Below, in pieces: positions 1-20,521 of a stretch of 64,000 nt of DNA. The notes below the pieces were generated by a model. The model saw only the letters and a list, made by a program, of their open reading frames with translations, had not been told where the DNA came from and searched no databases. The translations under genes and the position numbers were made by a program. Each line of letters starts with the position of its first letter. Position 1 is the stretch's first letter. This DNA comes from Candidatus Omnitrophota bacterium. GTDB lineage: Bacteria; Omnitrophota; Gorgyraeia; B26-G9; JBDRCZ01. The stretch is from contig JBDRCZ010000029.1 of the NCBI GenBank assembly GCA_043821285.1, positions 14,959 to 78,958 on the forward strand, read 5' to 3'.

Positions 1-3000
1 AGAGCTGCCTGATCACTCTTTCTTGCCTTGCGGCTATTTTCTCCGCTCAATGTTACCGTACGTAGGGCTTTTAATATTTCTCCTTTTAATTGTCCTTTAA
101 GACCATCAGATAACATGCTAAAATGTTGCTTGATTAAGCCCTCAACTAAGTTAGTAATTTCATTTTTAAACGCAGTTGCCTCCTCCCGTGCCTGGTTAAA
201 ACTCTGGTCAAGTATTGGCTGTTCAACACCAATCTCCTGTAATCGTTCTCTGCCTGCTTGGTAAAATTCTTGCTCTGCCTCGACCCAATCCCTCCCCTGC
301 ACGGTTAAATCAGAATCAGACAAGGTCTGGGCTAATCCTTCAATCCGCCAGTTGAGCCATGCTTCTAAGTCCTTAAATACCCTTTCTTTCTTACTCCTAA
401 CAACTCTCCCATTCCTAATTGTCATCACAATTATTTCACGCTCAGGGTCTTGTTCTAAATCCCTCCTTAATTCATCTACAGTTAAACTGGCATATCCGGT
501 TAAGGTATTTAAACGCACCTGATAAGGATTTTCCTGTTTTTGGTCATTTTCATCAAAAGCATTATTAGCAAAATGCGCTAAAGTTGAGTTACGCATTGCC
601 CGGGCATATTTTTTAATATAGGGATCTCGCAAACCACTGTTTAAAATTTTCTCAAGCTGCTGGTCAGCCTTTTGCATGGCCTCTTTTAAATCAGCGATTA
701 AAACCCGCAGCACGCGTTTGTCAAAATTAATACCCTGCGGCCTAAGTCCTAATTCTACTAACAGATTAAGCATTTGCTCTGCTTCTGCGTCATCAGCATT
801 GGCTATTTTTTCTAAATAAGCTGCTGGGTCTGGTTGCTGGCTAAGTTCTATTAATAGATTATGCACCTTTTTGTATTCTGGTTTTATCGCTAAATTTTTC
901 TGATCAGGATTGTTTATAAATGCATTCTTTTCCTGTTCAGTGATCATTTGATTATTCACTAAGGCAGTTAATAAATCTCCTAATAGTTCTTGCCTTTGTT
1001 GAGGTGAATCGTTATGCTCTTGAACATCTTTCTTATACTGCTTTATTCTTCCTTTTGCATCAGCAACCACCTGATCTAAACTATCCAAGGCTGCCTGGTG
1101 GGTATATTGGTTTAATTCATTAATCAGATTTTCAAATTGATGCTCTGATATTAGTAAATTGGGTAATTGCCTGGCTTCGGTAATTCTATTTTTAAGCTGT
1201 TCCTTAAGCGAGTCTTTTCCTGTACCCGACACCTGATCTAAATTAGACTGCTCAATAAAATCAGCAAAACCAGCCAACTGTTCATCGCGTACTTTTAGTC
1301 TCTCAATCGAAGGACTTGCCGGGTTAATCAGTCTGGCAATTGTCTGAGCTATCTGGTCATTACCTAAGTCTGCTAAAGTGAGTGGTTCATTCTCTGTTTC
1401 TCCGTCATTATCTTCTGGCCCGGCCTTAGATTCAGCCGCGGCATTTTGCTTGGTAATCAGGGCTTCAATTCTGGAAGCATATTCTTCCGGTAAATTTAGT
1501 TCATTTAATACCGGTAAAACGCCTAAATTTTTACTGGTTTGATTTAAAAGGGTATCAACGCTAATTGCTGCTTCGCCTTGGACATAGTATTTGTACATCT
1601 TTTTAGCCTGCCAGCCAAAAGAGAGTGGAGTAGATAATAAAGAAAGGGCCAGCATTGGGAAAGGCAAAGAAGAACCAGCACTAAATATTGAACTGATTAT
1701 TGGGATACTAATTGGCATGCTAACAAGACCAAGGATTATGGCTAAGCTTCCCAAAGGCAGTGCCAGTGAAAGTATATCTGTTCCAAGTTTCCTCACGAAT
1801 GATCCTTTTATTTTGTCCCACACTTCGTCTAACCATGATTTTTCGCCTTTGTTTCTAATCTGTTGAGAAAGCATTATTGCTCTTTGAAAATCACCGCTCT
1901 TCCATGCACTCGCAATCTCTGCATTCAGTTCCGCACGTTTTGCATTCAGTTTCGCGCGTTCATTTTGTTTGTCTGCTGCAAATAATCTATGTCCTCTTAA
2001 ATTATCTTCCATACCTAATACTGCCACCTGTGCTGACTGGGTGCGAGCAGTTTTAAATCCCGCCCAGGATAAACCCGCGCCTTCCTGCTGCCTTCCTGCT
2101 GCTTCCAGTTTTAATAAGGTATATGCTAATGCCTCAACATTTGCTGAAGTAGCTATCGCGGGATTTTGCTGCGTAAGTAGTGCCTCTGCCCGGGCTTCAA
2201 ACTCAACAAAACTCATCCTCTGCCCAGACTGTTCTACTGCTTTCTTAGAAAGGCCAAGGGTATTTGTAAAAGCAAACTGCTGGACACGGCTTAACGCAAA
2301 CCCGTCCTTTTTCACTTGCCGTCTTTTCTGCCAGCTTTCTATCGGCGCCTTATATACCTTGGGTTTGAGCATGGCTGCGGCAATCTCTTCTGGCTGGCTT
2401 AAAAATGTCTGGCTAAGCAGAGAACTTTCCTCAACCTCTTGTTTTGCCTCGTCAGTTAAGAAATTATACACTGTGGCCGCAATAATAAGATTATCATAAC
2501 TTACCTCAGGATTAAGCATGCCCAAGACAAAATCTATTACCTCTTCTTTATCTTGTGTATCATAATCCGCAAACGCGGAAGAATTAATAATATTTTCTGA
2601 TATAAAATCTAATATAGTTTGTGCCTGTTGGGGAGTATTTAGGGAAACGCCTTGCAAGGCTAAATCTTCTAACACCTGAGTAACGGGCGAGTCATTTGGC
2701 AGGAACACAGCTACGCGGGATAAAAGCTCAGGTGACCCACGGGTGCCATTTGAAAGAACGATCCGGTCAAAGTTTTTAAAAAGCTTGGCCTTTTCTGCTA
2801 AAGTAAGCCTGGCCTCCCCGCCTTTTCTGCGGGCTTGGTCAATCTGCTGGATAACATGAACCACGGTCCTATTCTGGCTGACATCATTGGCATGACTAAT
2901 TTCCTCGGATAAAATCCGGTCTAAGAACCGCCGGTGTTTGGCAACCGCAGTAATTTCTCGGATATTTACTGCCTCTCTAAAAGAGATATCTCTTCTCGCT

Positions 3001-6000
3001 TGTATTTTTTGATATCCTTCTGAGGTAAGGATACTCTCAGCAATATCCCTTAAAAGCGCGGCCCGGCTCTTTACCGCCTTGCCATAGTCACCTTTAGCAA
3101 TAAGGTCAAACAATTCCCGGGAAGAAGAAGCCACTCCCCGGATTGTCTGCTCAATAATCTCTTCCGCATTACGCGCATGATGACTTAATCTGAGATTAAC
3201 CTCAGCAGTATCTTTTTTATCTAAAATTGCTCTTAATTCTGCTTCTAAACTATCACGCTTTTGTTCTGAGGTTGCCAAACGCATCATGTGCTTTACTGGC
3301 TCAATCACCCCGCGGGAATAAGCGGCCTCGCGGATATGATGTACTAAGGCTGCAGAAAGCTCTTCACTTTGCATAAGTTCGGCATTGCGGATAAGTTCTT
3401 TTGCTTGGTCTTTTACTTCCCGGCCATAAGTTACTTGCATGCGTTTTAGTTCTTGCAGTCTTACCCCACTGGCGGTTTTTTCTCTTAAGGCACCTTTCAG
3501 ATAAAATACCCTTCTTAGACCTTCTGCTACATTTCTCCTGTTTCTGCCAATACCCTGATAAAGTTCTGATCTGGTCCAATTATGTCCATCCGCAATAACT
3601 AAATCAACAACGCCTATATAATCTATACCTGTTGCCCCTTTAACATTAGAAAGAATTATTCGATTTTGAGCATCATTAGCAAGGTCGCCGACTTTTTTCT
3701 CAGAGGCTGAAGTATTAATAAGCTCTATTGTTTCACCCAGATTATCATTCAAAAATTTTCTTACCAACTCATACATTACCGGATCTTTGACTAAGATTAA
3801 TACCCCCCGGCCATTTCTCCGGCTACTTACTATCTCACGGATAATATTTCGTATGATTGCTGGTTCTGATGCAAATCCACGCGTAACTACATCTTTATAT
3901 GTTGACGGGGTTATCTTAGCAACCCCTTTACCTAAGTGCAGCATATGCATAAGCTCAACTGTTTCTAAAGTACCAGATGCACCTAAAACCGAGGCCTGGC
4001 GGCCAAACATGCCTAATACCTCAGCAACGGTTGATTGGGAAGATGACTTACTATAAAATAATTTGTTCCGATCAACAATATCCGGACCATTTGCAGACTC
4101 TTTAGCATATAAAGCCGCAATAAAATACCGGTCACTAAACACCCGGTCCTCAGCAATATTTCCATTCTCAACCGGTTTAATCTCTTTGTCTTTTACATCA
4201 TATGTCTCTTGTTTCTCGGCAAACCTGGCATCAAAATATGCCTTAGCTGTTCTTTCCTTAATATTATGGGAGTTGATTATTTCCAGTGCCTTGCCATTTA
4301 AGCAATACTCCCCCCGATCCCGATAAACATAAGCATGTTCTTCTTTACGTGCCTCCGCAATATCCTGCGCTCTACCAATTTTTCCTTTTTCCGGCACACC
4401 TATTTCTTTTTGAAATATCGTATCTAATGCTTTTTTTGCATGAAATGCCGCCTCAATAAATTCTTTTTCTAACAGCAGCGATGTTTCAGAAGTAATATAA
4501 GTTACTTTACTGGAAAAAGGAATATGAAACTCATCAAATCTAACTACATCCTGCATGGCTAAGGCATCGCACAGCCGCTGATTTTTGCTTAAGCTTAAAA
4601 ACCCTAATCTGGTCTGGTCAACAACCACAATTTTATCCGGTGATAATAAAACATCAACCAGACCCTGTTCATTTCTCTCCGTATAATATTTATTGCCATC
4701 TTTTAATTCATAACCAAAAATGTCAACTAACTCCTGTAATTTAATTGATCCTTTTCCTCCATGCGCTTTATCACCCGCAAGCACGGTCTGTTCTGCTTCT
4801 CCGGTTTTTACAACCAGCAGTTGATTTAAACTCTTGCCCAGTGCCTTGGCTATCTCCCCTCTGACCAACATCTCCATAATAAAGCCTAAGGTCTTACCAC
4901 CACCAACTGCCTGATAAACACTATTTTCTTTTAACAGTTCTACAACCATCTTAATCTGGGCTGTAGATCTTTCTACATCCAGCAGGCCGGTTAACTCCTC
5001 CTTTGTTACATCCCGCCCCTGTTTCTTAAGCTCTAATTTTTTCGCTTCAATCAAATCCGCATGCGCCTTTTCAAAAACTATTCTTAATACTAAGCCGGTT
5101 AATCCTTCGACCATTTTTTCCCCACGGCCCGTAATTTCTCGCACCCTTTCTTGAACCGCGTCTTTGCTAATTTTCCCTTCAACAAGGATATCACGGTTAA
5201 ACTCAGTAATAATCTCGCCTTCTGCGCCTTGTAATTGTACCTTACCAGTCTCTTTATCAACAAAAACCTCAATCTCGCCAGATTCTAATCCCTGCACCAC
5301 TGCCTCAATCTCTTTACCCATCTTTCGCATGCCGCTGACAATCTCTAATTCTGGATAGAGCTTTATGAGCATTTCCACACCCATGTTCATTCTGGCAGAG
5401 CCAGCGATTAATTGAATTTCTTGTTTACCTAATATTCCTTCAACCCTGCGGTCAATTTGCTTATTTAATTCATTTATCCCCTGATTTAGCCGCTCAATTT
5501 GTTTATCAATCAGACGAACACTATTATCAAACGCTTCAATTCCCGTCCCGTTTTCTAAGCTATCTCTTCTTTCTGCTAACTGTCTACGTTTATCTCTTAG
5601 ATTATCAATTTTATTTAACAATTCATTTTTTTCCCGAATAAGCGGACTATGCTCTAATTCCTGTCTTGCGGTTTTTACTCTATCAATCAAATTACTAATC
5701 TCCGCATCAGCTACCCGGTCTAATTGTCTGATATAGGCATCTATAATATAGGTGCTTATATTTCGCGTGCTTAATTTCTCAGAAGTTAGCCCTTGCTTTA
5801 TGTTGCGCTCTAAGAGTGCTTGACCGCCAATGATTGTGGCCTCAGAAAAACCCTGGGGATTTTCACCAATTAATGCGTTTATATCCTTTAATATTTCTAA
5901 GTTGACCCGGTCCAGGGACTGGCTGATACTTTGCTGGCGTAAGGCAAGCTGCTGCTGGGTCTCACCCTTTAAATATGCCTGCTGATACTCTTGTTGTTTT

Positions 6001-9000
6001 TGATAATAATCGCGCTGTGTCTGGGTAAGTGTCTCAGCACCTTCTGCACTTAATCTTTTTTCAAGCCCTCGGGCATTGTAACGGTGTTCTTGCACATAGT
6101 CTACCAAGTGTCTTACATATTTTGTATCCTTAGGATTAATCCGATATACCTCCATTAACCCTTCAGTTATATTGCCCTCCAATCTATACGGCTCAAAGAC
6201 CTGCATAGATGCCTGCATCCTTAATGCCTCAGTAAGCTCTACTCTTAAAGGCGCCCGTTCACCAGAAGGCAGTTTTACCTCAACCAATACCTGATCCCCG
6301 ATCTGAACATCTTTATCTAACAGGCGCCGGGCATCCTGATCACCGACTAATTGTACCTCTTTACCTAATTTTTCTCGCAGAGTATCGCTTAAAGGTTTAA
6401 TTTCATTGTGGGCTCTAATCAAATTTCCTAACTCTGACAAGTTTAAAGAATTAACTCCCTTTATAAGTTCTGCACCAAAAGAATTTTCCACGCCTAATGA
6501 CTCTCTTCTTAGAGAATTTCTAAAAATAATTTCGGCATTAGAAGAATCTCCTGCTAATGCCTTACCGGCTAATTCCCAGTGAATATCGCTTCTGCCTTCA
6601 GGTTTGCCTTCTGCCAGCCATATACTATGAGCAAGAAATTTTTGTAAGTTATCTTTTTTGCCATCAGCCGCATATTCGCTTAAGTATTCTAACCCTAAAC
6701 GGATATCCCTGCCCACGGTAGCAAGATTGCCTCGGCTAAAATGCTGGGTAATCATATCTGTTTGCTGCTCCACAAAACCCTGTTCTCTTAAATAGTCTGC
6801 CACTACAGGCACTAATTCGCCCACCCTTTCTAAAACCTGCATTTCTAAATCTGCACCCTGACGTAATGCCTCTCTTAAACTCCCGTATTTCCTTACCGTG
6901 GCAAAATTCTTCACAGTTTTCTCGGAATTTATCTTGCCATCAGCTTCTCTTACGGTAAGCAACTCAGCGTTTAGCCGGTTTAGGTTTGGCTTCATAAATA
7001 GTAATGCCCAACCTAAAGCAAAACGTTCTCCTTCAGAAAATGCCATACCACTATATCTGGCTAATGCCTGCTCAAACCCACCCGCGGCCTGAATATCAGC
7101 CGCAGTCAATGCTCCACTTACAACATCTGCATACGCACCAGCTCTGCGCACACTCTGCAAACCCCGTTCAATACCGGTAACAAAACCCGAAACAAAGGTC
7201 AAAGATTTTGCCTCAAGCACTAAACCAGAGGCAATACTTAGGAAAGAATTATTTGCGGCCATGCCTCGGGCAAGCGAGCCTTCGATACGTGCCATTGGCC
7301 GGCCAATAAATGCGCGCGCTTTATTATATGCGCCTTCTCCAGCCTTAGCACGGGTGAGTGCTTGGGGAGATTTGCTAAGTATTTCATCAGAATGGCGCAT
7401 CATCACCTTAATCATCGGCCCCATAAATTTCCCTTCTTTTGCTGCAGCAAACCAGCTTATTGCCCGGTTAGCAGTAAAAAAGCTTCCCCAATCCAAAGGT
7501 AAATACCCCTGTTCCTCAGTCCCTTCTCTAAACCATGTATATTCATCTCCAATCTTAAACTGCCAAGAGGAGTTGATTAATTCTTGATTTCCCGTAAAAC
7601 GTCCAACTATTCTATCCGCTCCCGTTTCTAACACATGTATCCCCGTATCCCAGACAGGGCTTGCCATATTCATAACCATAGAAACAAACGGCCATTTTAT
7701 TGCCCCTTCTAACGCATCCAGGGCTAATTGGTTTATGCCATCACCTGTAAACGGGGTCTTGCTTCTCCTTAATAAACCAGTTTGTAATTCCGCAGTCTCT
7801 ACCCTGCTATAATCTCGCACGTGACCACCAATACCTTTCACAAACTCCATACCCTGCGGTGAAATTGCCCATTTAAATAGTATTCCAAGAAACGCACCTT
7901 TTGCAAATGCTGCGACAAATTCACCGGGAGTTGAACTGGCATTTAACCCGCCAGTAAGATAACTCCAAGCAATATTTCCAAATCCTCCAAGCGAAGCGAC
8001 GGTAAGACCTCCAATCACACGAGAGTTAAGTGTACCACTATAAATACCCTTATACGCACTTTCTCCAAGCCTATAAACTCTCGATAGACGAGTGCTATTA
8101 GAAATCCCCTGGTACGCTGTTGTCCCAAGATGATAGACTCTGGCCAGACGAACTTGACTTACCGCAGGATTAGCTGCACTCATCGCAGCAGTTGCTGCTT
8201 GAGATACATTTGCCACGCCGCCAAAAACACCCAATAATCCGCCAAGAATAAATCCGCCGATGAACCCTTTGGTATAAGTGTGTACATTTAACGGGTCAAA
8301 ATGAAATCCGGCATCTTTATTAATCCGGCCTTGATCATCAGTCTCATAATCCCAGCCAAAATAGCTCTTGGCACTAAGTTCTAAAGCCCCTAAAAATCCT
8401 TTATCTTCTCCCTGGCTAAACATCTGCTGGGCTAAGACATTATTCACCAACATATCAACATTACCAAAAACCGTACCCAAGTTAAGCCCTGCTCTTAAGC
8501 TGTGCAAGCCTATGCCCTTAAGTCCCTGGCTAGCCGTCTGGGTAAGCAAAACATTTGCCCCAGATAAGCCAAGCACACTCAGCGTAGTTGTGGCAAATAT
8601 TGCAATATTTTGTTCAAAGCTTAAAAATTGGCGATTATTAACCACAAAAGACGCAGCATTTGCGGCTGCAACTGCCGTAACTCCCATACTTGAAGCTGCA
8701 CCTACTCTGCTTGCAACAGGGGCTATTTTTGTTGCTATTGGCTCAAGTTTTTCCGCGAATCTGGCTGCTAAGGAAAATTTACCAGTAAGCTTCGTACCAC
8801 CCTTAGCAAGTAAAGTGCCGCCTTTAGCAAGCAAAGTACCGCCTTTTAATAACCCCCCACCAACAAACAGCAGTGGTACAGTAGTCGTCAAATCAACCCA
8901 ATCAAGAACACTGTATCCTCTAAAATCCAAAACATCCCCTTTATTCGGCAAAACTAAAGGAATAACAAAACTCATCGGGTTATGGGTCAATTGCATCCGG

Positions 9001-12000
9001 GTCATGGCAAAATCCATTCTTGCTTTAGCAAGAACAATATTTTGGTCTAATGTTTGTATCCTCTGTGCATATCCATTACTATTAATAATCATTGCCGCAG
9101 TATTACGTGCATCAGGGTCCTTAATCTTCTCTAATATTGCTGCTGGGGATATATCTCTAACCCTATCTACATGAGCTGGAGTTACCTCCCCGGGACTGCT
9201 GATGTAAGCCACAGGATTATCTCCATCACTATTTATTCTGGGGTCAATATAAACGTCACTCTCATTCATACCTACGAATTTATCGATATCAATCCCTTGC
9301 TTTGCTAATTGTTGTAATAATTCCACATAAACTCTGTCTTTTTGCTGATTTAAACTTGCCTTTTCACCAACCCCGCCAAAATAATCTCCAGTATCATTAG
9401 TCCCTACCGCAGATTCCCGGATACGTTTTTCAATCCCTGCCTGCAGTATTGCGCCAATATCCGCAAGAAGCTGTATATCTTGAATAAAATTATACAGGGT
9501 TGGATTGTTCGTGTAAAGCTCCTGCATTTTATTAGAATATGCATCCCGGGCACTTTTATAGTCTATGACAACTTGAGAACGTGCTTGAAGCTGCTCCGGC
9601 GTAAACCTCACAAGTTCCTCCGAAGAAAGGTCAAAGCCTGGGTTATCTATATATAAATTAAGCCGCACATCATACATGGTTCTGGCATGCTGCAGGTCTT
9701 GCCATACTGCATATGTATTTCCATAATTAGTCTTTAGCTCGTTTACTTTGTCATTATACTGTTTAGATTTATTCATATAATTATCTACCGCCGCATTATT
9801 ATATTTATTCTCATCACTATTCCAATACGTGGCAATCGCATCCTGCACTTGTCCATTTATTTTACGCACATCAAATAAGGCCTCGTAAGTTTCCAAAGAC
9901 GCCTTTGCTAAATTAACATCTGCAAAATGTGCGTCGTCTTGCTCCTGAATAAGTGCCCGAACTGTAGGATCATCCTTATATTGCGCTAATACATCTGCAT
10001 AATTCTGCTCCTGTTTCATCAGCTCCTCTATGGACTGATAAGTTTTCGGCATATTTTCCTTAATCATCTTTCTTGTCTGGCACTCCTCACGTAACACCTC
10101 AATTGCCGGCCTTGCCGCGTCCAGTAACTCCGCAAGCCTGCCGCGAGAAAAAATTTCCGGAGTAGTTTCGTCTAATAAACCCATGTATGATAACGCAGAA
10201 TTGGCATTGAATTTTATCTTCTGCACATCATAAGAAATAAGTGGGCTCTCAATATCTATATGCATTACCCAAAAGCTACCTGGCTGGGCTGGAGCATCGC
10301 CGCATTCTGCCTTTTTAAGTACAATTATTCCCTGGGTTGGGTCTAAGGTGTCTAATTCGTCTAACGCCTTTTTATAAGTAGTACTATTACGCGTATCACC
10401 ATTAGCTATTGCGGCCTTATATCTTTCTTCAACTTCCCCCCTTAATTCAATATTGATAAGCAAAAAAGTATCAGGGCTTGTAAGGTCATCCAGTTCTGGA
10501 GCATAAGCGCCTGCTTTTTCTCCTTGCGTTATATAACGACCTGTGTTTTCATCAATTGTACCTGCTACAACAGGTATCTTCTCTCTTGCATCCTTCCATA
10601 ATTCTGCTATATCCCTTCCGCCTTCCTCTTCTGCAAAACCCCAAACTTTATCCCATGCATCGGTTATTGCCGCACTTGCTCCTTCAAGTACCTTTTGAGC
10701 TGATTCTGTTAAGTTATACCATGCCTGTGCAATCCCCTGTGGTTTTTCATAAGCTTCTCTCGCTAAGTCCTCAGTTCCCGATCCAATTGCTAATTTCCAC
10801 AAATTATCCGTTGCCTCATTAGCTAGTTCCATTAAATCTTTTACTGGTTTTGGCAAAGCTAACCCTAAGTTGTGTAATGCCTCACCAATTGGTCCAAGCC
10901 CACATACTAATTCTAATGCTCCCGGTCCATCCTCTGCTGCAGTTGGATATAACTTTGTTTGCAAGTCAGAAATTCTATTCTGTTCTTGCTGTAATAAAGG
11001 AAAGTTGGTAAAAAGATTACTTGTTAGCGGTTCTAACTTTTGCCTTAGACCATATAATATATTCACAAGCGGATCATTTGTATCAAGACCCTTAATCTCG
11101 ACTCTTCCATCTTCCGTTTGTATTATGTCATATCTATTAGTTATCTCTTCTTTTTTTTGATTAAAGAAATTCATTAAGTTATTTAACCCTGGAATAGTTA
11201 ACTCGGGCAGGTTTGGTGGTTTTGTCTGCTGTAAATAGGCGTTTTGCACTGCTGGCATACCAGTATTAGGATCAATAGGAGCGGCTGTCTGTGGATTTGT
11301 TGGACCAAATATTTGAGGTAATTGTGCCATAATGCCACCAACAACACCAGTTACACCATTTAACGTATGTATAAAGCTAACCTGCTCATCTAGAGATAAT
11401 TTTGATTGATTAGCCGGCGCTTCACTTGATTTACCAGCCGTAAAATAGCTATTATTTAAAGTTTCATCATCCAATAGTGGGATGTATCCCATATTGTCTA
11501 ACTCATAGGTCAAAGAACTTGGCCCCATAAATAAATTTTTCAACCCCTCCCACCCCGGGATATCTACTTGTGCTGCGGACATTGTTACGGGTATGTATCC
11601 TATGGAATCATCTTCTGATATGTATCCTAAATCCCAGGTATCTGTATCTATCGTCGTTTCAGTTAGCGGTGCAAAAAGCATTGCTCCTATGTCTAAAAAT
11701 GACGGCTCTTCCGGGCTCCAGGCTAATGTGTCCTCAGAAGCAACTGGAACATTGAATAAATCTACAAAATTTCTTGCCCCATCCAAAAGGGGATCTAAGG
11801 TAACTTGAGTTAAATCTATATTTGGCAGAGCTAAAGGTGATTGCGCCTCCTTATTAAGGTTATCCCAGACAAAGATATTTTCTTGAGGAGAAGGTGGCTG
11901 CTGGGGGTTATTGAATAAATTTAAAAAATTATTTGCAGCACTGGCCGCACCATTTAAAAAATTATCCCACCATGAAGTTTGCGGCGCTGTATTTGCATCC

Positions 12001-15000
12001 GTTGTGCCGGTGTCAGATGCATTATCTGTTGCCCCGGGTAAACTTGGATCATCAATCCCTGTTCCCCATGTAGTATCTCCTGTTGTTTGTCCGCTATGCT
12101 CTGCCATTGCCGCCGCCCATTTTGCTTTATTTTTAGCTACCTGTTCCGGGTCTACTTCATTTCCTGTCGTGTCCCCGCCAATCATCTTACCTTTCGTATC
12201 AAAATAAACTGTAACTCCGTTTAACACCTGCCGGCCGGAACCGTCTTTATTAAAATATATGTCCGCACCGCTCTTATGGTCTTTGGCATAAAAGGCCATG
12301 CCGTCTTCCGGGTCCAAATGGTAAGTCATCCATTTTGCCCCGGTAACATTCATTACAATAAATTCCGGATTACTATAGTCAAACGTGGATATCGTGCCTT
12401 GTTCATGGTCAATTAATTTTAGTCTCCGGTTAATATCATTCGCATCTCTTACATCTACGATAATACATCTACCTGTAACTTCATCCCCGCGGAAAACATT
12501 TATTGCCACGACCCCTTCTTGGCTCCAATCAAACACTGAGGTTGTGCCTTTTTCATGGTCAACCCGCTTAATCGTGCGCTCGGTCTGTGCGTCTTGATAC
12601 TCGGTCATACTAATCGGCAGGGTATTGCTGTCTCCATAGTAAACATCTATTTTAATTACCGCAGGATCACTGTGGTCGTAAATCCAGGTTTGGGTCGGGG
12701 TGATCATCTTTTCCCATTGGTTGGTTGCTCTATTTCTGTAAACCGTAGCAGTTATTTGGCCGGATGGGTTAATAATTGTTGATTGAAGGAGATTGGGATT
12801 AGTGTTGTTGTTATTAACATGAAACATAACATTGCCGTTTTGCTGTATAGTAAGCGGGGCATTACGGAAATCCGTTTGCAGGTTAACTGGCAGGGATAAG
12901 ATTATATTGTTTACTAAGTTAATATTGGAAATTAATGTATTCCTGTAAGTTGTATCATTCAAATTTTGCTGCACCGTAGCAATAGCCCGTTGCAGGTTTT
13001 GTCCCTGGTTTACATTAGTGTTAATCTGTGCGGCTACTACGGCTCTCACTGTCTCCCTGGGCACAAAACTGCCACTAGCAATTGCCGCAAGCTGTGCTGT
13101 GTCATTTACTGCATCATAAGGAGATATATATGCCCCGTTTTGTGCCGCGTTCATAAAAGCACCTTTGGCTGCGGCCCGGGCAATGTCTTGTGCCTGCTGG
13201 CTGTTCGGGTCCATGCCCTGGTTAATCAACTGCCGCATGGTTGCGTCCCAGGCCTGGTCACCAGCATAACCCGCAGTATCTGCTACTGGGATAGTTGCGC
13301 TACCACCACCATTATCATTACTGTCATCATCATCGTATAGATGACCACCGCCTCTTTCAATCTCATCTAATGCTGCTGCTCTCGCTACATAACCCGCTTC
13401 CTCATCTGATAACCCCTGTTGCTTAGCATAGTCCCATGCATCCTCTCCAGCATTTGCCCCTGCTGTTATCTGCATCTCTTGCTGAGTAAGTTTCCGGGAA
13501 TTGCCCTTGGCCTGGTCACTTAATACCTTGCCATCCCATAACCGGTTAAACTCCTTAGTGGTGAGTATCTTTTTCTCGCCATTATCAATAATCGTAACAT
13601 TATTGGAATCTATCCGGATTAATGTTACCCAGTGGCCTTCAAAGTGGATAATCACCGGCCGGTTAGTTTTAATTAAACTCTCCAGGTCCATTTCATAGCC
13701 GTCTAAATTAACCTGATATTTTGTCGCAATCATCTTTAAGGCATACATCGAGGTAAATACGTCTTGTCCGCGGATTACAACTTCTCCTTCCGCTAAAATA
13801 TCCTGCAGGATTAGTTCGTAAGCTAATCTTTGCTTATCCGTATCCTTCCCCTGTATATTAAGGAGAGCAGCTAAGGCATTGACCGCACAGTTAATAATAT
13901 TTATCACCGCATCCTTGGCCCAGTTAACCGCCTTGGAAATAAAGCTCGATACAATCTCACTTGCCGAGTATTTTGCACTAATCATGGCCTGGGCAATTGT
14001 TACCATTGACCGGTCAAGTTGAGTGGCAATCTTTAAGACATCTTCGGCGCTTACCATAAGCGATTTAAGTGCCAGAATAATCTCTTGGTCAGAATAATCT
14101 GCGTTTAACAGGGTGCGGTATATCTGATAATTACTAAAGGGAAGTTTTGCCTCTTTTATTGCGGCAATAATATCTGTGGCTGAGCGGTTGGCAGATTTAA
14201 GCAAGGCCGCTATTTCCACTAAGCCCTTACCCATCTGGGCAAAGCTGGTAATAATCTCGCTGTCCGTATATCCCTGCTGGAACATTTTTAAAACTAAGGC
14301 TTCCTGCCGGTAGTCTAATTTTATTAATGCGTGCATCATTACAAATGCTTCCTGCTGTTTTTGTTCTTCAATATTTTGCTCAGGTTTTACCCCTACCTTT
14401 CCAATTTCTGGCAGTACTTTATCCCGGTGCTGTTCGATTATTTCGCGTTTTGCCGCCTCTTCCTGCAAAAGCGATAATTTCTCCCGGTCTTCTCTTGTCT
14501 GTTCTCTGACTGGTCTTGAGATTAAACTCTCGGCCTCGTGTTCTGAATACCCGGCAGAAACCAATGCCTCATAAATCTCATCGGCAAAATACCCTTGTTT
14601 TAGCGCGGTTATTGCCACATCCCGGGCAGAATTACCGGATTTTTTAAGCAGGGTAATCATTGTGGTGAGGTCATAACCCGCAGCTCCCATACCTTTGATT
14701 GATTCTTTAATAAAACTAAGATTCGAACCAATACCGGCGGCATAATCCCGGGCAATTTTACTTTCGCTGCCCGCTTGCGGAAGAGAGAGTGTGTTTAGGG
14801 GGGAATAAGCGGTTTGGGTTATATCAATTTGTTCGGTTTTTACCCGCGGGGTGTTTTTGGTGAGTTCATCAAGAAGGTCTCTCTGTCCCTGTAGATAGCG
14901 AAAATCCGCAGCCAGGGAAAAATTGCTGTTGGTAAACAAAAATGCCTGAATTAATAATACGGTGATGAATTTAAACCATAATTTCTTTGTTATTATATTC

Positions 15001-15002
15001 AT
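1..15002 (-). CDS. giant multidomain secreted protein, 5' complete, 3' end beyond window (at least 5,000 aa). Order from N-terminus: signal peptide; ~33-aa helical repeats; C39-like peptidase domain (Ser at the Cys position); beta-rich repeats; Gly-rich hydrophobic/tandem-repeat region; SF2 DExH helicase core
   Basis: GGAGG then a 7-nt spacer then ATG at 15000-15002 on the minus strand. N-terminus MNIITKKLWFKFITVLLIQAFLFTNSNFSLAADF is signal-peptide-like. Manual translation of the reverse complement from 15002 down to base 1 met no stop, and the reading frame at base 3 matches the frame set at the ATG. Plus-strand ORFs across this span are all 268 aa or shorter and lie antisense. The minus-strand ORF is absent from the track, as expected if the track lists only frames closed by a stop inside the window. 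Internal motifs: GHWVTLIRIDSNNVTIIDNGEKK (C39 His region, about 13600-13700), VGGGKT (4888-4915), DEFH (4524-4535), QGIGRNRR (3536-3560). Confidence 0.8.
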   Translation of the reverse strand, partial: MNIITKKLWFKFITVLLIQAFLFTNSNFSLAADFRYLQGQRDLLDELTKNTPRVKTEQIDITQTAYSPLNTLSLPQAGSESKIARDYAAGIGSNLSFIKESIKGMGAAGYDLTTMITLLKKSGNSARDVAITALKQGYFADEIYEALVSAGYSEHEAESLISRPVREQTREDREKLSLLQEEAAKREIIEQHRDKVLPEIGKVGVKPEQNIEEQKQQEAFVMMHALIKLDYRQEALVLKMFQQGYTDSEIITSFAQMGKGLVEIAALLKSANRSATDIIAAIKEAKLPFSNYQIYRTLLNADYSDQEIILALKSLMVSAEDVLKIATQLDRSMVTIAQAMISAKYSASEIVSSFISKAVNWAKDAVINIINCAVNALAALLNIQGKDTDKQRLAYELILQDILAEGEVVIRGQDVFTSMYALKMIATKYQVNLDGYEMDLESLIKTNRPVIIHFEGHWVTLIRIDSNNVTIIDNGEKKILTTKEFNRLWDGKVLSDQAKGNSRKLTQQEMQITAGANAGEDAWDYAKQQGLSDEEAGYVARAAALDEIERGGGHLYDDDDSNDNGGGSATIPVADTAGYAGDQAWDATMRQLINQGMDPNSQQAQDIARAAAKGAFMNAAQNGAYISPYDAVNDTAQLAAIASGSFVPRETVRAVVAAQINTNVNQGQNLQRAIATVQQNLNDTTYRNTLISNINLVNNIILSLPVNLQTDFRNAPLTIQQNGNVMFHVNNNNTNPNLLQSTIINPSGQITATVYRNRATNQWEKMITPTQTWIYDHSDPAVIKIDVYYGDSNTLPISMTEYQDAQTERTIKRVDHEKGTTSVFDWSQEGVVAINVFRGDEVTGRCIIVDVRDANDINRRLKLIDHEQGTISTFDYSNPEFIVMNVTGAKWMTYHLDPEDGMAFYAKDHKSGADIYFNKDGSGRQVLNGVTVYFDTKGKMIGGDTTGNEVDPEQVAKNKAKWAAAMAEHSGQTTGDTTWGTGIDDPSLPGATDNASDTGTTDANTAPQTSWWDNFLNGAASAANNFLNLFNNPQQPPSPQENIFVWDNLNKEAQSPLALPNIDLTQVTLDPLLDGARNFVDLFNVPVASEDTLAWSPEEPSFLDIGAMLFAPLTETTIDTDTWDLGYISEDDSIGYIPVTMSAAQVDIPGWEGLKNLFMGPSSLTYELDNMGYIPLLDDETLNNSYFTAGKSSEAPANQSKLSLDEQVSFIHTLNGVTGVVGGIMAQLPQIFGPTNPQTAAPIDPNTGMPAVQNAYLQQTKPPNLPELTIPGLNNLMNFFNQKKEEITNRYDIIQTEDGRVEIKGLDTNDPLVNILYGLRQKLEPLTSNLFTNFPLLQQEQNRISDLQTKLYPTAAEDGPGALELVCGLGPIGEALHNLGLALPKPVKDLMELANEATDNLWKLAIGSGTEDLAREAYEKPQGIAQAWYNLTESAQKVLEGASAAITDAWDKVWGFAEEEGGRDIAELWKDAREKIPVVAGTIDENTGRYITQGEKAGAYAPELDDLTSPDTFLLINIELRGEVEERYKAAIANGDTRNSTTYKKALDELDTLDPTQGIIVLKKAECGDAPAQPGSFWVMHIDIESPLISYDVQKIKFNANSALSYMGLLDETTPEIFSRGRLAELLDAARPAIEVLREECQTRKMIKENMPKTYQSIEELMKQEQNYADVLAQYKDDPTVRALIQEQDDAHFADVNLAKASLETYEALFDVRKINGQVQDAIATYWNSDENKYNNAAVDNYMNKSKQYNDKVNELKTNYGNTYAVWQDLQHARTMYDVRLNLYIDNPGFDLSSEELVRFTPEQLQARSQVVIDYKSARDAYSNKMQELYTNNPTLYNFIQDIQLLADIGAILQAGIEKRIRESAVGTNDTGDYFGGVGEKASLNQQKDRVYVELLQQLAKQGIDIDKFVGMNESDVYIDPRINSDGDNPVAYISSPGEVTPAHVDRVRDISPAAILEKIKDPDARNTAAMIINSNGYAQRIQTLDQNIVLAKARMDFAMTRMQLTHNPMSFVIPLVLPNKGDVLDFRGYSVLDWVDLTTTVPLLFVGGGLLKGGTLLAKGGTLLAKGGTKLTGKFSLAARFAEKLEPIATKIAPVASRVGAASSMGVTAVAAANAASFVVNNRQFLSFEQNIAIFATTTLSVLGLSGANVLLTQTASQGLKGIGLHSLRAGLNLGTVFGNVDMLVNNVLAQQMFSQGEDKGFLGALELSAKSYFGWDYETDDQGRINKDAGFHFDPLNVHTYTKGFIGGFILGGLLGVFGGVANVSQAATAAMSAANPAVSQVRLARVYHLGTTAYQGISNSTRLSRVYRLGESAYKGIYSGTLNSRVIGGLTVASLGGFGNIAWSYLTGGLNASSTPGEFVAAFAKGAFLGILFKWAISPQGMEFVKGIGGHVRDYSRVETAELQTGLLRRSKTPFTGDGINQLALDALEGAIKWPFVSMVMNMASPVWDTGIHVLETGADRIVGRFTGNQELINSSWQFKIGDEYTWFREGTEEQGYLPLDWGSFFTANRAISWFAAAKEGKFMGPMIKVMMRHSDEILSKSPQALTRAKAGEGAYNKARAFIGRPMARIEGSLARGMAANNSFLSIASGLVLEAKSLTFVSGFVTGIERGLQSVRRAGAYADVVSGALTAADIQAAGGFEQALARYSGMAFSEGERFALGWALLFMKPNLNRLNAELLTVREADGKINSEKTVKNFATVRKYGSLREALRQGADLEMQVLERVGELVPVVADYLREQGFVEQQTDMITQHFSRGNLATVGRDIRLGLEYLSEYAADGKKDNLQKFLAHSIWLAEGKPEGRSDIHWELAGKALAGDSSNAEIIFRNSLRRESLGVENSFGAELIKGVNSLNLSELGNLIRAHNEIKPLSDTLREKLGKEVQLVGDQDARRLLDKDVQIGDQVLVEVKLPSGERAPLRVELTEALRMQASMQVFEPYRLEGNITEGLMEVYRINPKDTKYVRHLVDYVQEHRYNARGLEKRLSAEGAETLTQTQRDYYQKQQEYQQAYLKGETQQQLALRQQSISQSLDRVNLEILKDINALIGENPQGFSEATIIGGQALLERNIKQGLTSEKLSTRNISTYIIDAYIRQLDRVADAEISNLIDRVKTARQELEHSPLIREKNELLNKIDNLRDKRRQLAERRDSLENGTGIEAFDNSVRLIDKQIERLNQGINELNKQIDRRVEGILGKQEIQLIAGSARMNMGVEMLIKLYPELEIVSGMRKMGKEIEAVVQGLESGEIEVFVDKETGKVQLQGAEGEIITEFNRDILVEGKISKDAVQERVREITGRGEKMVEGLTGLVLRIVFEKAHADLIEAKKLELKKQGRDVTKEELTGLLDVERSTAQIKMVVELLKENSVYQAVGGGKTLGFIMEMLVRGEIAKALGKSLNQLLVVKTGEAEQTVLAGDKAHGGKGSIKLQELVDIFGYELKDGNKYYTERNEQGLVDVLLSPDKIVVVDQTRLGFLSLSKNQRLCDALAMQDVVRFDEFHIPFSSKVTYITSETSLLLEKEFIEAAFHAKKALDTIFQKEIGVPEKGKIGRAQDIAEARKEEHAYVYRDRGEYCLNGKALEIINSHNIKERTAKAYFDARFAEKQETYDVKDKEIKPVENGNIAEDRVFSDRYFIAALYAKESANGPDIVDRNKLFYSKSSSQSTVAEVLGMFGRQASVLGASGTLETVELMHMLHLGKGVAKITPSTYKDVVTRGFASEPAIIRNIIREIVSSRRNGRGVLILVKDPVMYELVRKFLNDNLGETIELINTSASEKKVGDLANDAQNRIILSNVKGATGIDYIGVVDLVIADGHNWTRSELYQGIGRNRRNVAEGLRRVFYLKGALREKTASGVRLQELKRMQVTYGREVKDQAKELIRNAELMQSEELSAALVHHIREAAYSRGVIEPVKHMMRLATSEQKRDSLEAELRAILDKKDTAEVNLRLSHHARNAEEIIEQTIRGVASSSRELFDLIAKGDYGKAVKSRAALLRDIAESILTSEGYQKIQARRDISFREAVNIREITAVAKHRRFLDRILSEEISHANDVSQNRTVVHVIQQIDQARRKGGEARLTLAEKAKLFKNFDRIVLSNGTRGSPELLSRVAVFLPNDSPVTQVLEDLALQGVSLNTPQQAQTILDFISENIINSSAFADYDTQDKEEVIDFVLGMLNPEVSYDNLIIAATVYNFLTDEAKQEVEESSLLSQTFLSQPEEIAAAMLKPKVYKAPIESWQKRRQVKKDGFALSRVQQFAFTNTLGLSKKAVEQSGQRMSFVEFEARAEALLTQQNPAIATSANVEALAYTLLKLEAAGRQQEGAGLSWAGFKTARTQSAQVAVLGMEDNLRGHRLFAADKQNERAKLNAKRAELNAEIASAWKSGDFQRAIMLSQQIRNKGEKSWLDEVWDKIKGSFVRKLGTDILSLALPLGSLAIILGLVSMPISIPIISSIFSAGSSLPFPMLALSLLSTPLSFGWQAKKMYKYYVQGEAAISVDTLLNQTSKNLGVLPVLNELNLPEEYASRIEALITKQNAAAESKAGPEDNDGETENEPLTLADLGNDQIAQTIARLINPASPSIERLKVRDEQLAGFADFIEQSNLDQVSGTGKDSLKEQLKNRITEARQLPNLLISEHQFENLINELNQYTHQAALDSLDQVVADAKGRIKQYKKDVQEHNDSPQQRQELLGDLLTALVNNQMITEQEKNAFINNPDQKNLAIKPEYKKVHNLLIELSQQPDPAAYLEKIANADDAEAEQMLNLLVELGLRPQGINFDKRVLRVLIADLKEAMQKADQQLEKILNSGLRDPYIKKYARAMRNSTLAHFANNAFDENDQKQENPYQVRLNTLTGYASLTVDELRRDLEQDPEREIIVMTIRNGRVVRSKKERVFKDLEAWLNWRIEGLAQTLSDSDLTVQGRDWVEAEQEFYQAGRERLQEIGVEQPILDQSFNQAREEATAFKNEITNLVEGLIKQHFSMLSDGLKGQLKGEILKALRTVTLSGENSRKARKSDQAA
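8796..8860 (-). repeat. in-frame 21-nt tandem repeat (about 2.5 units) encoding (LLAKGGT)n within the giant gene
   Basis: accacccttagcaagtaaagt / gccgcctttagcaagcaaagt / accgcctttt... on the plus strand. Confidence 0.7.
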
Positions 15003-15022
15003 AATATAGCCTCCAAAAAAAC

Positions 15023-15045
15023 GGTTTTGTAAAATACTTAACCAC
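15023..15045 (-). promoter_or_regulatory. conserved leader motif GTGGTTAAGTATTTTACAAAACC (minus-strand sense), 21 nt upstream of the giant-gene ATG
   Basis: Near-identical motif found at 41624-41646 (upstream of clpC) and 42947-42969 (upstream of mcsB). Each copy sits 21-26 nt 5' of the start codon. Confidence 0.45.
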
Positions 15046-15087
15046 AAAAGTCACAGAGTTACATAAGAATAGAATAGTTATAGAATG

Positions 15088-15116
15088 ATCTTATCCATGC
15101 GCTTCTGTGTTCTCAA
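15088..15116 (-). promoter_or_regulatory. candidate sigma70 promoter for the giant gene (-35 TTGAGA, 17-nt spacer, -10 TAAGAT)
   Basis: Read on the minus strand: TTGAGA corresponds to plus 15111-15116 and TAAGAT to plus 15088-15093. Confidence 0.25.
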
Positions 15117-15684
15117 TTCATTATTTTCATGTTTTTCATATTCTGTCTGACACTACCATATAAAAAAACGGGCTGCCGTTTTAGATGTTAGAAATCTAAT
15201 TCTTCGGCAGCCCGGTAGTCTAGCGCTAAATTTTCGTTTTCGGTACGCCCGGCAATCTTAGCTAATAACGCTTTAGACCCGCAGCTTTGCCCTGGCTAAA
15301 TTTTAATTGACCAGGTCCGGCATAGCTAAAATAAATTATATTTCAGCAATGACGAAGCCCCCGTTTTTCAACGGGTTAGCCCTTTCGGATTTAGATTTAT
15401 AATTTAATACTTTTAAAAAGTACTTGTTAATTTTCAATATATTATTATTAATAGTGTAAACGCCTAATTGTGTAGGGATAATAATATAGGCATAATAATG
15501 TATTGCGCAATTTATTTATAATTATTTATAAATTCTTATATAAATATAGCATAAAAAAGCAGTTAAGTCAACTAAAACACGCAAAGTTTTGTTTGTCATA
15601 ACAAAAGAAAAATCAGCATGATTTTTCTTTTGGCAGAAAAAAGTAATAATTCAGAGTTAAACCTGAATTATTACTTTTTTTTAT

Positions 15685-15942
15685 TTACTTCGCGCCCTCT
15701 GTGGTTAATTTTTTTGTGTATTTAGTGTTTTCCTTAATATCCAGTAAGAGCAGTAACATCTTATTTATCGCAAATAAAACAATAAAATTAAATATTCCGA
15801 GAAATAACGTAACAAAACCCATAAACCGCGGGGCATCCGGCCCGCCGCCGCCAAAGAAAATAATCAACGTTAGCACCAGAAAAAACACGCCAATTATCCA
15901 GGCGGTAATCAAAGCAACCCGGGACACAATATTTATCATCAT
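15685..15942 (-). CDS. small hydrophobic membrane protein, hypothetical
   Basis: 85-aa ORF with two hydrophobic stretches flanking a GGGGPDAPRF segment. Confidence 0.35.
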   Translation of the reverse strand: MMINIVSRVALITAWIIGVFFLVLTLIIFFGGGGPDAPRFMGFVTLFLGIFNFIVLFAINKMLLLLLDIKENTKYTKKLTTEGAK

Positions 15943-15947
15943 AAAAA

Positions 15948-16061
15948 ATTTCCTTTAGCTTGACTATCATTGTCTCAAGACTACAGGTCATTATGCCAAG
16001 CTGATAAGCCTTTGCAGCACCGGAAATTTTTTATCCGTTTGAAAACCGTAGGTTTTCAAAC
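15948..16061 (+). repeat. interspersed repeat family D copy 1 (about 90 bp) followed by a 10-bp-stem hairpin GTTTGAAAAC-cgtagg-TTTTCAAAC
   Basis: About 75% identical to 16961-17049. The hairpin module recurs at 44990-45015. Confidence 0.5.
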
Positions 16062-16307
16062 TTTCCATCCCAAACGCCACCCTGCGACAAGACCGCAGCG
16101 AATAGGCAATTTACTAGTTTCCGGTGCTTCGCACCATCGCTAATTCATCCCTATGCCATGAGTACAGATAATTCTTAGCGTTTTTTTAACGTTCAATAAA
16201 AAATAGATAGGCTAAAACAGATTACATCCGCAACACCATGACACAGAGCGGATATAAATAAATATTGTCTCTTTGCTATCTTTATAGTCAAAGGAAATAA
16301 TAAATCT

Positions 16308-16350
16308 TGTTAATCAGGTAAATCCTGTCAGGATTTATCTATATTTTTTT
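16308..16350 (+). repeat. partial copy of repeat family F (ttaatcaggtaaatcctgtcaggattt palindrome)
   Basis: Shares the taaatcctgtca core with 19229-19318 and 27641-27735. Confidence 0.35.
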
Positions 16351-16416
16351 CATCGGTGTTCTTTTTAATCTGCGATCATCATGCATCTTCTCATCTGTGA
16401 TCATCCCTGCCTGCCG

Positions 16417-16731
16417 TTAGGTAGGTGTGTTCCGGTACTTTCTCATATAAGCACGCATGTATTCCCGGTGTTGTTTTTTTCGTTTGATGCGGTAGGCCTT
16501 TATCTTTTCCGGATGCTTCTTACGCCATTTTCTTAATTGCTCACGGCGCATATTCTGCCAGTGGGGATCACTGCTTTGGCTATATTTAAAATAATCGGGA
16601 TTTTTCATGCGCCAGTTTGCTAAATTAAGCAGGTGCCGTTCATGCTGGCATTTTTTTCTGGTACAGACTTTTTGATGGCGTGGATGATACTGGCTTGGTT
16701 TAAACCTCTTCCCGCATATTCGGCAAATCAT
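16417..16731 (-). CDS. basic CxxC zinc-ribbon protein, hypothetical
   Basis: 104-aa ORF starting MICRICGKRF with a later Cys cluster, then a highly Lys/Arg-rich tail. Confidence 0.4.
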   Translation of the reverse strand: MICRICGKRFKPSQYHPRHQKVCTRKKCQHERHLLNLANWRMKNPDYFKYSQSSDPHWQNMRREQLRKWRKKHPEKIKAYRIKRKKQHREYMRAYMRKYRNTPT

Positions 16732-19354: not shown

Positions 19355-20521
19355 ATGGTATCCTCGAGATGTATGGTAAATAGAACCTTTTGGCAAAAGC
19401 AGATTGAAGCATTATGGAAAGAAAAATCTATCATCTGGCTCTCCGGCATCCGTAGAGCAGGAAAGACCTTTCTTTCTAAAAGTCTTCCGAATATCGAATA
19501 TTTTGACTGCGAATTACCCCGAACTCGCAGAATGTTAGAAGACCCTGAAGGATTTTTGGAAACGTTTAAAGAGAAACGCATTATTCTTGATGAAATTCAT
19601 CGTCTTAAGAATCCTTCAGAACTTCTAAAAATTGCTGCTGACTATTATCCTTCTATACAAGTACTGGCAACCGGCTCCTCTACTTTAGGGGCATCAAGAA
19701 AATTTAAGGACACCCTTACCGGCAGAAAACGCTCCCTTTGGCTAACACCAATGAATCTCAACGACCTCGCTGATTTTAATAATATAAATTTATCTCACCG
19801 CTTTTTACACGGAGGGCTCCCCCCGTTTTTTATGGCGCAAAAATTGCCGGAAAAAGATTTCCAAGAATGGATTGACGCTTACTGGGCAAAAGACATCCAA
19901 GAATTATTTCGCTTGGAACGCCGTTATTCCTTCCAAAGATTTTTTGAACTGCTTATGGCTCAAAGCGGCGGCATTTTTGAGGCTACAAGATTTGCAAAAT
20001 TGTGTGAAGTAAGCCGTACAACAATAACTAATTACCTTAAAGTACTCGAAGCAACCTTTGTTGCTCATGTGATCCGCCCATTCAGTTCCCACCGTCCAAC
20101 AGAAATTGTTTTAGCACCGAAGATCTACGGTTTTGATACTGGGTTCGTCTGTTACCACCGTGGTATAACCACATTGCGTTCTGAAGACATGGGACTCCTC
20201 TGGGAACATATTGTATTAAATGAACTTCAGGCAGAATTACAAACACGCAATATTTACTATTGGCGTGATAAACGCGGTCACGAGCTTGATTTTATTCTTA
20301 TACAAAAAAATAAAATTCCCCTGGCGATTGAATGTAAAAGCACATTAGCAGAAAACAGTATTCGAACACGAAACATCCAAGCCTTCTTAACCCAATACCC
20401 ACAAGCAAAAATATTTTATGTCTGTCCTGACGTCAAACGAGTCTATCAGATAAAACTAAAAACCACAAAAATCACAGTAACCAATCTTCCAACACTGCTC
20501 AAAGCACTAAACAACGCATAA
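19355..20521 (+). CDS. AAA+ ATPase of the COG1373 type (AAA_14 N-domain with DUF4143 C-domain)
   Basis: Walker A GIRRAGKTFL and Walker B ILDEIH. Length of about 390 aa and C-terminal region are typical of this family. Only sizeable plus-strand gene in the window. True start may be the Met at 19373. Confidence 0.75.
   Translation: MVSSRCMVNRTFWQKQIEALWKEKSIIWLSGIRRAGKTFLSKSLPNIEYFDCELPRTRRMLEDPEGFLETFKEKRIILDEIHRLKNPSELLKIAADYYPSIQVLATGSSTLGASRKFKDTLTGRKRSLWLTPMNLNDLADFNNINLSHRFLHGGLPPFFMAQKLPEKDFQEWIDAYWAKDIQELFRLERRYSFQRFFELLMAQSGGIFEATRFAKLCEVSRTTITNYLKVLEATFVAHVIRPFSSHRPTEIVLAPKIYGFDTGFVCYHRGITTLRSEDMGLLWEHIVLNELQAELQTRNIYYWRDKRGHELDFILIQKNKIPLAIECKSTLAENSIRTRNIQAFLTQYPQAKIFYVCPDVKRVYQIKLKTTKITVTNLPTLLKALNNA

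Follow-up and report, generated by a model that had tools for sequence, protein, structure and literature searches.

Giant proteins of the phylum Omnitrophota have been described that carry a signal peptide, a nearby C39 domain, numerous transmembrane regions and SecA DEAD and preprotein-binding domains of divergent sequence (West-Roberts et al. 2023, bioRxiv 10.1101/2023.11.21.568195). The SecA-like domains of these proteins are without scaffold and wing, and the role proposed for them is to export the very giant protein that carries them, or accessory proteins (West-Roberts et al. 2023). More recently, 'Peptidase C39' and 'SecA DEAD-like' were reported as the largest two of the architecture clusters for long Omnitrophota proteins, and PF07517 is listed in the Pfam-domain catalogue of long-protein architectures (Nielsen and Lui 2026, 10.64898/2026.06.07.730766). 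Here, we describe a gene for a 7,803-amino-acid (aa) protein in a 64,000-nucleotide stretch of DNA of a Candidatus Omnitrophota bacterium (assembly GCA_043821285.1, contig JBDRCZ010000029.1, positions 14,959 to 78,958; hereafter 'the window'). The protein contains an ATPase region that a preliminary description of the same DNA had assigned to the DExH nucleic-acid helicases of superfamily 2 (SF2). This region is very likely a SecA-type motor instead, because three independent tests (a profile search of the PDB, the predicted fold and a profile-profile alignment) agree on SecA.

On the minus strand of the window, a frame without stops extends over 3..15050 (5,016 codons), exceeding every other open frame present by a wide margin. 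Its most plausible start is the ATG at 15000-15002, with a GGAGG located 7 nucleotides upstream. The gene continues past the window start, the window coding for 5,000 of the 7,803 aa, and the identical full-length protein was recovered by an exhaustive HMMER search covering 1.84 billion cluster representatives. It corresponds to NCBI record MFH1776504.1 ('MAG: cysteine peptidase family C39 domain-containing protein', where MAG stands for metagenome-assembled genome; Candidatus Omnitrophota, on a 123-kb contig), the annotation of which names C39 only and does not mention the SecA-like motor. The preliminary description was correct in placing the ATPase within a giant protein that starts with a signal peptide, the N-terminus being signal-peptide-like. 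It also called such a combination unexpected, a judgement overtaken by the published giant Omnitrophota proteins of this kind (West-Roberts et al. 2023; Nielsen and Lui 2026). The gene and the motor are located as follows.

3..15002, minus strand: giant gene, first 5,000 codons (stop-free frame, ATG and GGAGG ribosome-binding site; exact prefix of the full-length protein).
3423..4985, minus strand: SecA-like motor, aa 3340-3860, with the domain order NBD1, PPXD, NBD1, NBD2 (AlphaFold, Foldseek, PDB profile search and hhalign).

The exhaustive search yielded 32 matching clusters (that of the query included), the members of which are mostly either very long (3,000-7,803 aa) or short and probably partial. 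Sixteen full-length cores, 20-38% identical to the query, make up the family alignment. When the profile of this family was compared with 177,635 distinct PDB sequences, SecA was the only significant match (Thermotoga maritima SecA, 3jux/4ys0, at 5.5e-5). SecA2 of Mycobacterium tuberculosis (4uaq) came next at 0.013, the subsequent matches were noise (at least 0.06), and the sole helicase-related entry up to E=10 was Mfd, at 0.55. A phmmer search of all PDB sequences with the single sequence returned nothing.

Modelled by AlphaFold2 from the family alignment, aa 3330-3934 form two RecA-like alpha/beta domains (pLDDT 75.7, pTM 0.69). In a Foldseek comparison of this model with the PDB, ranks 1-28 were all occupied by SecA or SecA2. 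The best match, 6itc_A, is a substrate-engaged SecA-SecY complex (E=8.3e-17, query TM-score 0.62), and SecA2 structures are among the top matches (6sxh, 1.3e-15; 4uaq, 1.2e-13). DinG, RIG-I/MDA5/DRH-1, Mss116, RapA and UvrB were listed at ~1e-9, with TM-scores of 0.32-0.45.

Profile-profile alignment led to the same family. Aligned by hhalign with Escherichia coli SecA, for which the reference sequence was confirmed to be identical to PDB 2fsf, the family scored 89% probability (E=2e-6) and was colinear over SecA residues 101-471, a range that runs from Walker A through PPXD into NBD2. Within this alignment, the query segment ETYDVKDKEIKPVENGNIAEDRVFSDRYFIAALYAKE pairs with the conserved PPXD core of E. 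coli SecA. The elements placed by these comparisons, in the order of the protein chain, are the following.

4947..4967, minus strand: Q-motif-equivalent site STAQIKM (Gln, Q20, at least 90% conserved in the family alignment).
4890..4910, minus strand: motif I or Walker A, AVGGGKT (Lys invariant in 16/16; aligns with SecA MRTGEGKT).
4524..4535, minus strand: motif II or Walker B, DEFH (Asp and Glu invariant; aligns with SecA DEVD).
3993..4514, minus strand: PPXD-like insertion, aa 3497-3670, between motifs II and III (colinear with SecA 229-395 in hhalign; alpha/beta insertion in the model).
4107-4217, minus strand: core of the PPXD-like insertion, ETYDVKDKEIKPVENGNIAEDRVFSDRYFIAALY (hhalign).
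3963..3983, minus strand: motif III, GASGTLE (SecA: GMTGTA; Gly invariant; aligned with SecA).
3618..3641, minus strand: motif V, KGATGIDY (SecA: AGRGTDI; conserved in the family; aligned with T. maritima SecA).
3534..3557, minus strand: motif VI, QGIGRNRR (SecA: QLRGRxGRQG; Q487 and R491 invariant; aligned with T. maritima SecA).

All four motifs named in the preliminary description are thus present in one stop-free frame of the minus strand: DEFH lies exactly where it had been placed, and AVGGGKT (reported at 4888-4915) and QGIGRNRR (reported at 3536-3560) are each displaced by a few nucleotides. The spacing that it gave for an SF2 enzyme was accurate from motif I to motif II (about 120 aa reported, 125 aa found) and inaccurate from motif II to the C-terminal module (about 250 aa reported, 300 aa found, measured to ATGIDY at 3618-3635). 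The interval between motifs II and III is more telling. In ordinary SF2 helicases these two motifs are ~30 aa apart; here they are separated by 184 aa because a PPXD-like domain is inserted between them, and the gap in E. coli SecA is likewise 184 aa (DEVD at 209, GMTGT at 393). As this interval is far above ~30 aa, the supposedly expected SF2 spacing fits SecA alone. The Gln of the Q-motif-equivalent site precedes the Walker A Lys by 21 residues in the giant protein and in E. coli SecA alike.

The resemblance to SecA and SecA2 (Bacillus subtilis SecA 6itc, E. coli SecA 2fsf, Clostridioides difficile SecA2 6sxh) extends over several levels: the domain order NBD1, PPXD, NBD1, NBD2; the motif order, with near-equal spacing relative to E. 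coli SecA (21 aa from Gln to Walker A Lys, 184 aa from motif II to III and ~115 aa from motif III to V); a recognisable PPXD core; a long helix directly after NBD2; and the best match in both fold and profile.

These results bear directly on the helicase assignment, according to which the region would be a DExH helicase or translocase acting on DNA or RNA after processing of the giant protein or its delivery to another cell. The assignment is understandable, since motif II literally reads DEFH, and since the region shares with SF2 helicases such as RIG-I, Mss116, DinG and UvrB the tandem RecA-like domains, motifs I, II, III, V and VI and the DExH string. Weak Pfam matches to DEAD, ResIII or Helicase_C do occur in some family members (best 1e-4 to 3e-5), and SF2 helicases are present in the Foldseek list at ~1e-9. 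For the query as a single sequence, a profile check of the kind suggested in the preliminary description was not passed: Helicase_C was reached at E=0.0088 with 16.7 bits, below the cut-off of 23.5, and Pfam DEAD, ResIII, SNF2_N, HA2 and OB gave no match. The predicted fold is a tandem of RecA-like domains.

Against a helicase, SecA stands ahead of every such enzyme in the Foldseek list by ~7 orders of magnitude in E-value (TM-score 0.62 vs at most 0.45), the significant PDB sequence matches are to SecA only, and the ~170-aa domain between motifs II and III, which SF2 helicases do not have, aligns with the SecA PPXD. The accessory domains of SF2 helicases were not found in the giant protein. 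A search of its first 5,000 aa, those encoded in the window, with Pfam and NCBIfam for the adjacent nuclease or methylase regions that the preliminary description had proposed to look for detected none, nor was any nucleic-acid-binding domain seen there. As for the DExH string itself, motif II is DExH in 13 of the 16 family members and DExD in the other 3, and DEFH reads as simply a local variant of the SecA DEVD. The nucleic-acid helicase was thus rejected on the fold ranking, the PDB profile matches and the PPXD alignment, and we regard it as very improbable. With this, a tempting misreading is corrected, and no case is made here for a secreted nucleic-acid enzyme.

What the preliminary description had recognised correctly is a tandem RecA ATPase of SF2 type with intact catalytic motifs, which the predicted fold and the invariant residues confirm. 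The columns invariant across the 16 cores are K41, D161, E162, G345, G362, Q487 and R491, together with one downstream Lys. Because conservation centres on catalytic residues at 20-38% identity, the region is best regarded as an active ATPase, and as neither a chance resemblance nor a relic. An inactive relic devoid of ATPase function might be suspected from the very low similarity to curated families and the sub-threshold Pfam scores. Invariance of Lys in Walker A, Asp-Glu in Walker B, Gly in motif III and Gln and Arg in motif VI at such low identity points to selection on catalysis, which makes a relic the least credible explanation considered here and one to be given almost no weight.

Further relatives were sought in GTDB representative genomes, in a scan seeded with a 4-sequence alignment, the 16-sequence one being too divergent. 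All seven genomic relatives lie in long open frames (within the DNA retrieved, 2,528 to >7,200 codons); five bear record titles of Omnitrophota or Omnitrophica and two are titled 'uncultured Planctomycetales'. Public names found among relatives include 'predicted ester cyclase', 'DUF2934 domain-containing protein [Deltaproteobacteria bacterium]' and 'uncultured Planctomycetales' MAGs (P0003, P0005; L001, L006). Such misleading names suggest mis-binning or annotation transfer within the motor family. A word-indexed protein search with a 651-aa query gave no match and missed even a database protein 100% identical to it, and the same kind of search with the family profile gave 1 match only; negatives from word-indexed searches are unreliable for sequences such as these. 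No exact match was obtained for the giant protein, the ROK regulator or CysS encoded in the window in a contig index, or for a 52-nucleotide stretch of DNA in metagenome contigs.

Conservation in the family does not end with NBD2. It runs ~400 aa further, to about aa 4250, and is held in 7-12 relatives, delimiting a second module.

2253..3428, minus strand: family-specific all-alpha module, aa 3859-4250 (conservation; structure model).

A second model, covering aa 3856-4405, is entirely helical (pLDDT 71.6), and in both models a helix of 45-51 residues (51 in the second model) follows directly after NBD2, at the position of the SecA scaffold helix. The best-conserved feature of the module is the loop LSNGTRGSPE (2727-2756, minus strand; family pattern SNGxRGxP). 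A Foldseek search of the PDB returned no fold match to the module, SecA included (best E=0.36). The profile alignment to T. maritima SecA extends to residue 683, and hhalign of the downstream module found no similarity to the C-terminal half of SecA.

SecA docks on SecY and engages its substrate through the wing domain and the two-helix finger. That neither element was detected in the giant protein could mean that the ATPase, although derived from SecA, has a job other than export, such as remodelling or unfolding cytoplasmic proteins or driving changes in the conformation of the giant protein. Such a change of job would result from losing the SecY-docking elements, and the conserved ~400-aa helical module without a PDB match stands in their place. 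Against this explanation, the PPXD polypeptide clamp has been kept, the best structural match is the substrate-engaged state of the SecA-SecY complex, and membrane segments lie on both sides of the module. We therefore hold a non-export function to be rather improbable.

The location of these membrane segments, and of the domains that precede them, is as follows.

14910..15002, minus strand: aa 1-31, putative Sec signal peptide with a Lys-rich n-region, a hydrophobic core of 12 aa and a site, SLA|A, that resembles a cleavage site (by sequence inspection).
13503..13940, minus strand: Peptidase C39-like domain, aa 355-500 (Pfam PF03412).
7863..8891, minus strand: aa 2038-2380, hydrophobic cluster of ~4-7 probable transmembrane segments (uncharged stretches; Kyte-Doolittle peaks of 1.2-1.9 with a window of 19).
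1605..1775, minus strand: 57 residues without charge, aa 4410-4466, a probable hairpin of 2 (possibly 3) transmembrane helices (Kyte-Doolittle peak 2.27).

The N-terminus of the giant protein, MNIITKKLWFKFITVLLIQAFLFTNSNFSLA|ADF, is organised like a Sec signal peptide, with Lys-rich, hydrophobic and small-x-small parts, and comparable N-termini, ending in AQA|V, are present in two of the relatives (L001 and L004). The cluster at aa 2038-2380 separates the N-terminal ~2,000 aa, which include the C39-like domain, from the ATPase, downstream of which comes the uncharged stretch at aa 4410-4466. Because the signal peptide is separated from the motor by the hydrophobic cluster, a cytoplasmic motor is plausible in spite of the secretion signal, and the need of the motor for ATP supports this placement. 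The preliminary description had instead invoked a processed fragment or delivery into another cell; with a hydrophobic cluster ahead of the ATPase, neither is needed. That the motor is cytoplasmic and acts on polypeptide is, in our assessment, reasonably likely.

Taken together, the region is probably a divergent SecA-type ATPase with a PPXD, situated in a 7,803-aa Omnitrophota membrane protein, in which the motor is cytoplasmic, tethered and pushes polypeptide. The layout of the chain would be a signal peptide, ~2,000 aa probably outside the cytoplasm (with C39), the transmembrane cluster, ~2,000 aa probably inside the cytoplasm (coiled coils, motor and helical module), the membrane hairpin and ~3,300 aa of helical repeats. 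On this layout, the N-terminal part would be exported and the chain would then span the membrane an odd number of times, so that the block of about aa 2400-4400 would remain in the cytoplasm, tethered by the membrane segments of the protein itself and not by the SecA scaffold, wing or finger. The motor would hydrolyse ATP, grip polypeptide rather than nucleic acid and push it across the membrane. Its likely substrate would be either the very long N-terminal part of the same protein or partner proteins.

Two variants of this explanation differ in what is exported, and through what. In the first, the giant protein would be a membrane-anchored accessory translocase, similar to SecA2, that serves other secreted proteins, for example a neighbouring 1,292-aa protein, and not its own chain. 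SecA2 structures rank among the top matches (6sxh, 4uaq), the N-terminal motif W-F-K-x-I-x-x-x-L-x-x-A-F-L occurs in 2 open reading frames (ORFs) of the window only, the giant gene and that of the 1,292-aa protein, and export of accessory proteins has been raised before (West-Roberts et al. 2023). Against it, the shared motif amounts to two proteins in one window, and a motor made after ~3,300 residues might just as well act on parts of its own chain that are made later; we consider this variant possible though unlikely. In the second, termed 'autotranslocon', the motor, the transmembrane segments on either side of it and the helical module would make up one self-contained unit, in which a SecA-derived ATPase permanently fused to its own membrane conduit would export its own 2,000-aa N-terminus, or partners bearing the W-F-K signal, without SecYEG. 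The conserved 400-aa helical module with its SNGxRGxP loop would then replace the SecA wing and finger. This variant, the replacement of wing and finger included, is more doubtful still.

Several observations weigh against a cytoplasmic, polypeptide-pushing SecA-type motor and must be set beside the evidence in its favour. Pfam SecA_DEAD (PF07517) and SecA_PP_bind (PF01043) are absent for the query at E<=10 and for the 16 relatives at E<=1, and the motor shares only 10-16% identity with SecA. The wing domain and the two-helix finger (IRA1) escaped detection by modelling, Foldseek and hhalign. No canonical secA, secY, secE or secG and no secretion genes lie beside the giant gene in the window. 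The topology derives from hydropathy only, and ~4-7 segments ahead of the motor allow either helix parity; likewise, the ATPase activity and the substrate of the motor are predictions only. Some of these points are at the same time differences from SecA proper, to which may be added a motif II of DExH type where SecA has DEVD, and a motor in which the C-terminal zinc-binding tail, in addition to wing and finger, is not detectable. Moreover, SecA is a soluble protein of ~900 aa, whereas the motor described here is embedded within a membrane protein of 7,803 aa, with transmembrane segments on either side and the helical module after it.

The closest described systems remain the published giant Omnitrophota proteins, with which the present one shares the phylum, the signal peptide and C39 domain, the transmembrane regions, the SecA DEAD and PPXD domains without scaffold or wing, and a fast-evolving sequence. 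It differs in length (7,803 aa here, the authors having focused on proteins >30,000 aa), in the absence of the glycosyl-transferase, hydrolase, dockerin and kinase domains that define the two published categories, and in a SecA-like module too divergent for PF07517. The protein is a new, unusually divergent member of this already described class, and it fits the class in every tested architectural respect but size (7.8 kaa vs >30 kaa). Two consequences follow for work on the class. Pfam fails to detect some of the SecA-like motors in large Omnitrophota proteins because of their divergence, and Pfam-based inventories may therefore undercount the architecture. In addition, at 7.8 kaa and with a well-delimited module of ~900 aa (motor and helical module), the protein is a more tractable model for tests of membrane crossing than those of >30 kaa.

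Other parts of the giant protein merit brief description. The Peptidase_C39 (PF03412) match at aa 417-495 is clear (E=1.2e-9, 38.5 bits, cut-off 22 bits), and both candidate catalytic residues, Cys372 (NCAVNA) and His457 (GHWVTL), are kept in the C39-like domain, which on this basis may be proteolytically active and could then process the giant protein. The residues encoded beyond the window (aa 5001-7803; 2,803 residues) form repeats rich in Ala, Val, Ile and Glu that are probably helical, with motifs of the type AENxxEALPxLRxxAxIELAKQ recurring several times; the hydropathy peaks in this part are probably amphipathic helices, not membrane segments.

Upstream of the giant gene, ~1.4 kb (15003-16416) are without a convincing gene. 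Present in this interval are an inverted repeat, perfect over 20 bp, with a T-run after it (15635-15682), a sigma-70-like site matching at 10/12 positions, with TG extension, on the strand of the giant gene (15571-15543), and a terminator-like hairpin (15182-15165). Between it and the gene for a ROK regulator lies a 104-aa ORF (16417-16731, minus strand; MICRICGKRFKPSQYHPRHQKVCTRKKCQHERH...), the product of which is very basic and rich in Cys and His and could be a zinc-ribbon protein.

The 1,292-aa protein (22647-26525, minus strand) has no match in Pfam or NCBIfam. Its middle part appears hydrophobic by eye, and a zinc-protease-like motif, HELGH, is located at aa 1102. The N-terminus, MNNLTRTIWFKLIAIILVNAFL..., nearly equals the signal-peptide motif of the giant protein, MNIITKKLWFKFITVLLIQAFL..., and the neighbour may be a co-exported partner.

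The remainder of the window is devoted to housekeeping functions, encoded nearly all on the same strand: the ROK regulator, cysS, gltX, ispF/ispD, a radA-like gene, mlaDEF-like genes, clpC with mcsA/B-like genes, lolCD-like genes and biotin biosynthesis. Rfam and tRNA scans of the window detected one tRNA-Ser only, distant from the giant gene. All credible genes of at least 150 aa are on the minus strand save that at 19355-20521, a strong strand bias over 64 kb, and each 2-kb bin of the window has a negative GC skew (-0.05 to -0.30).

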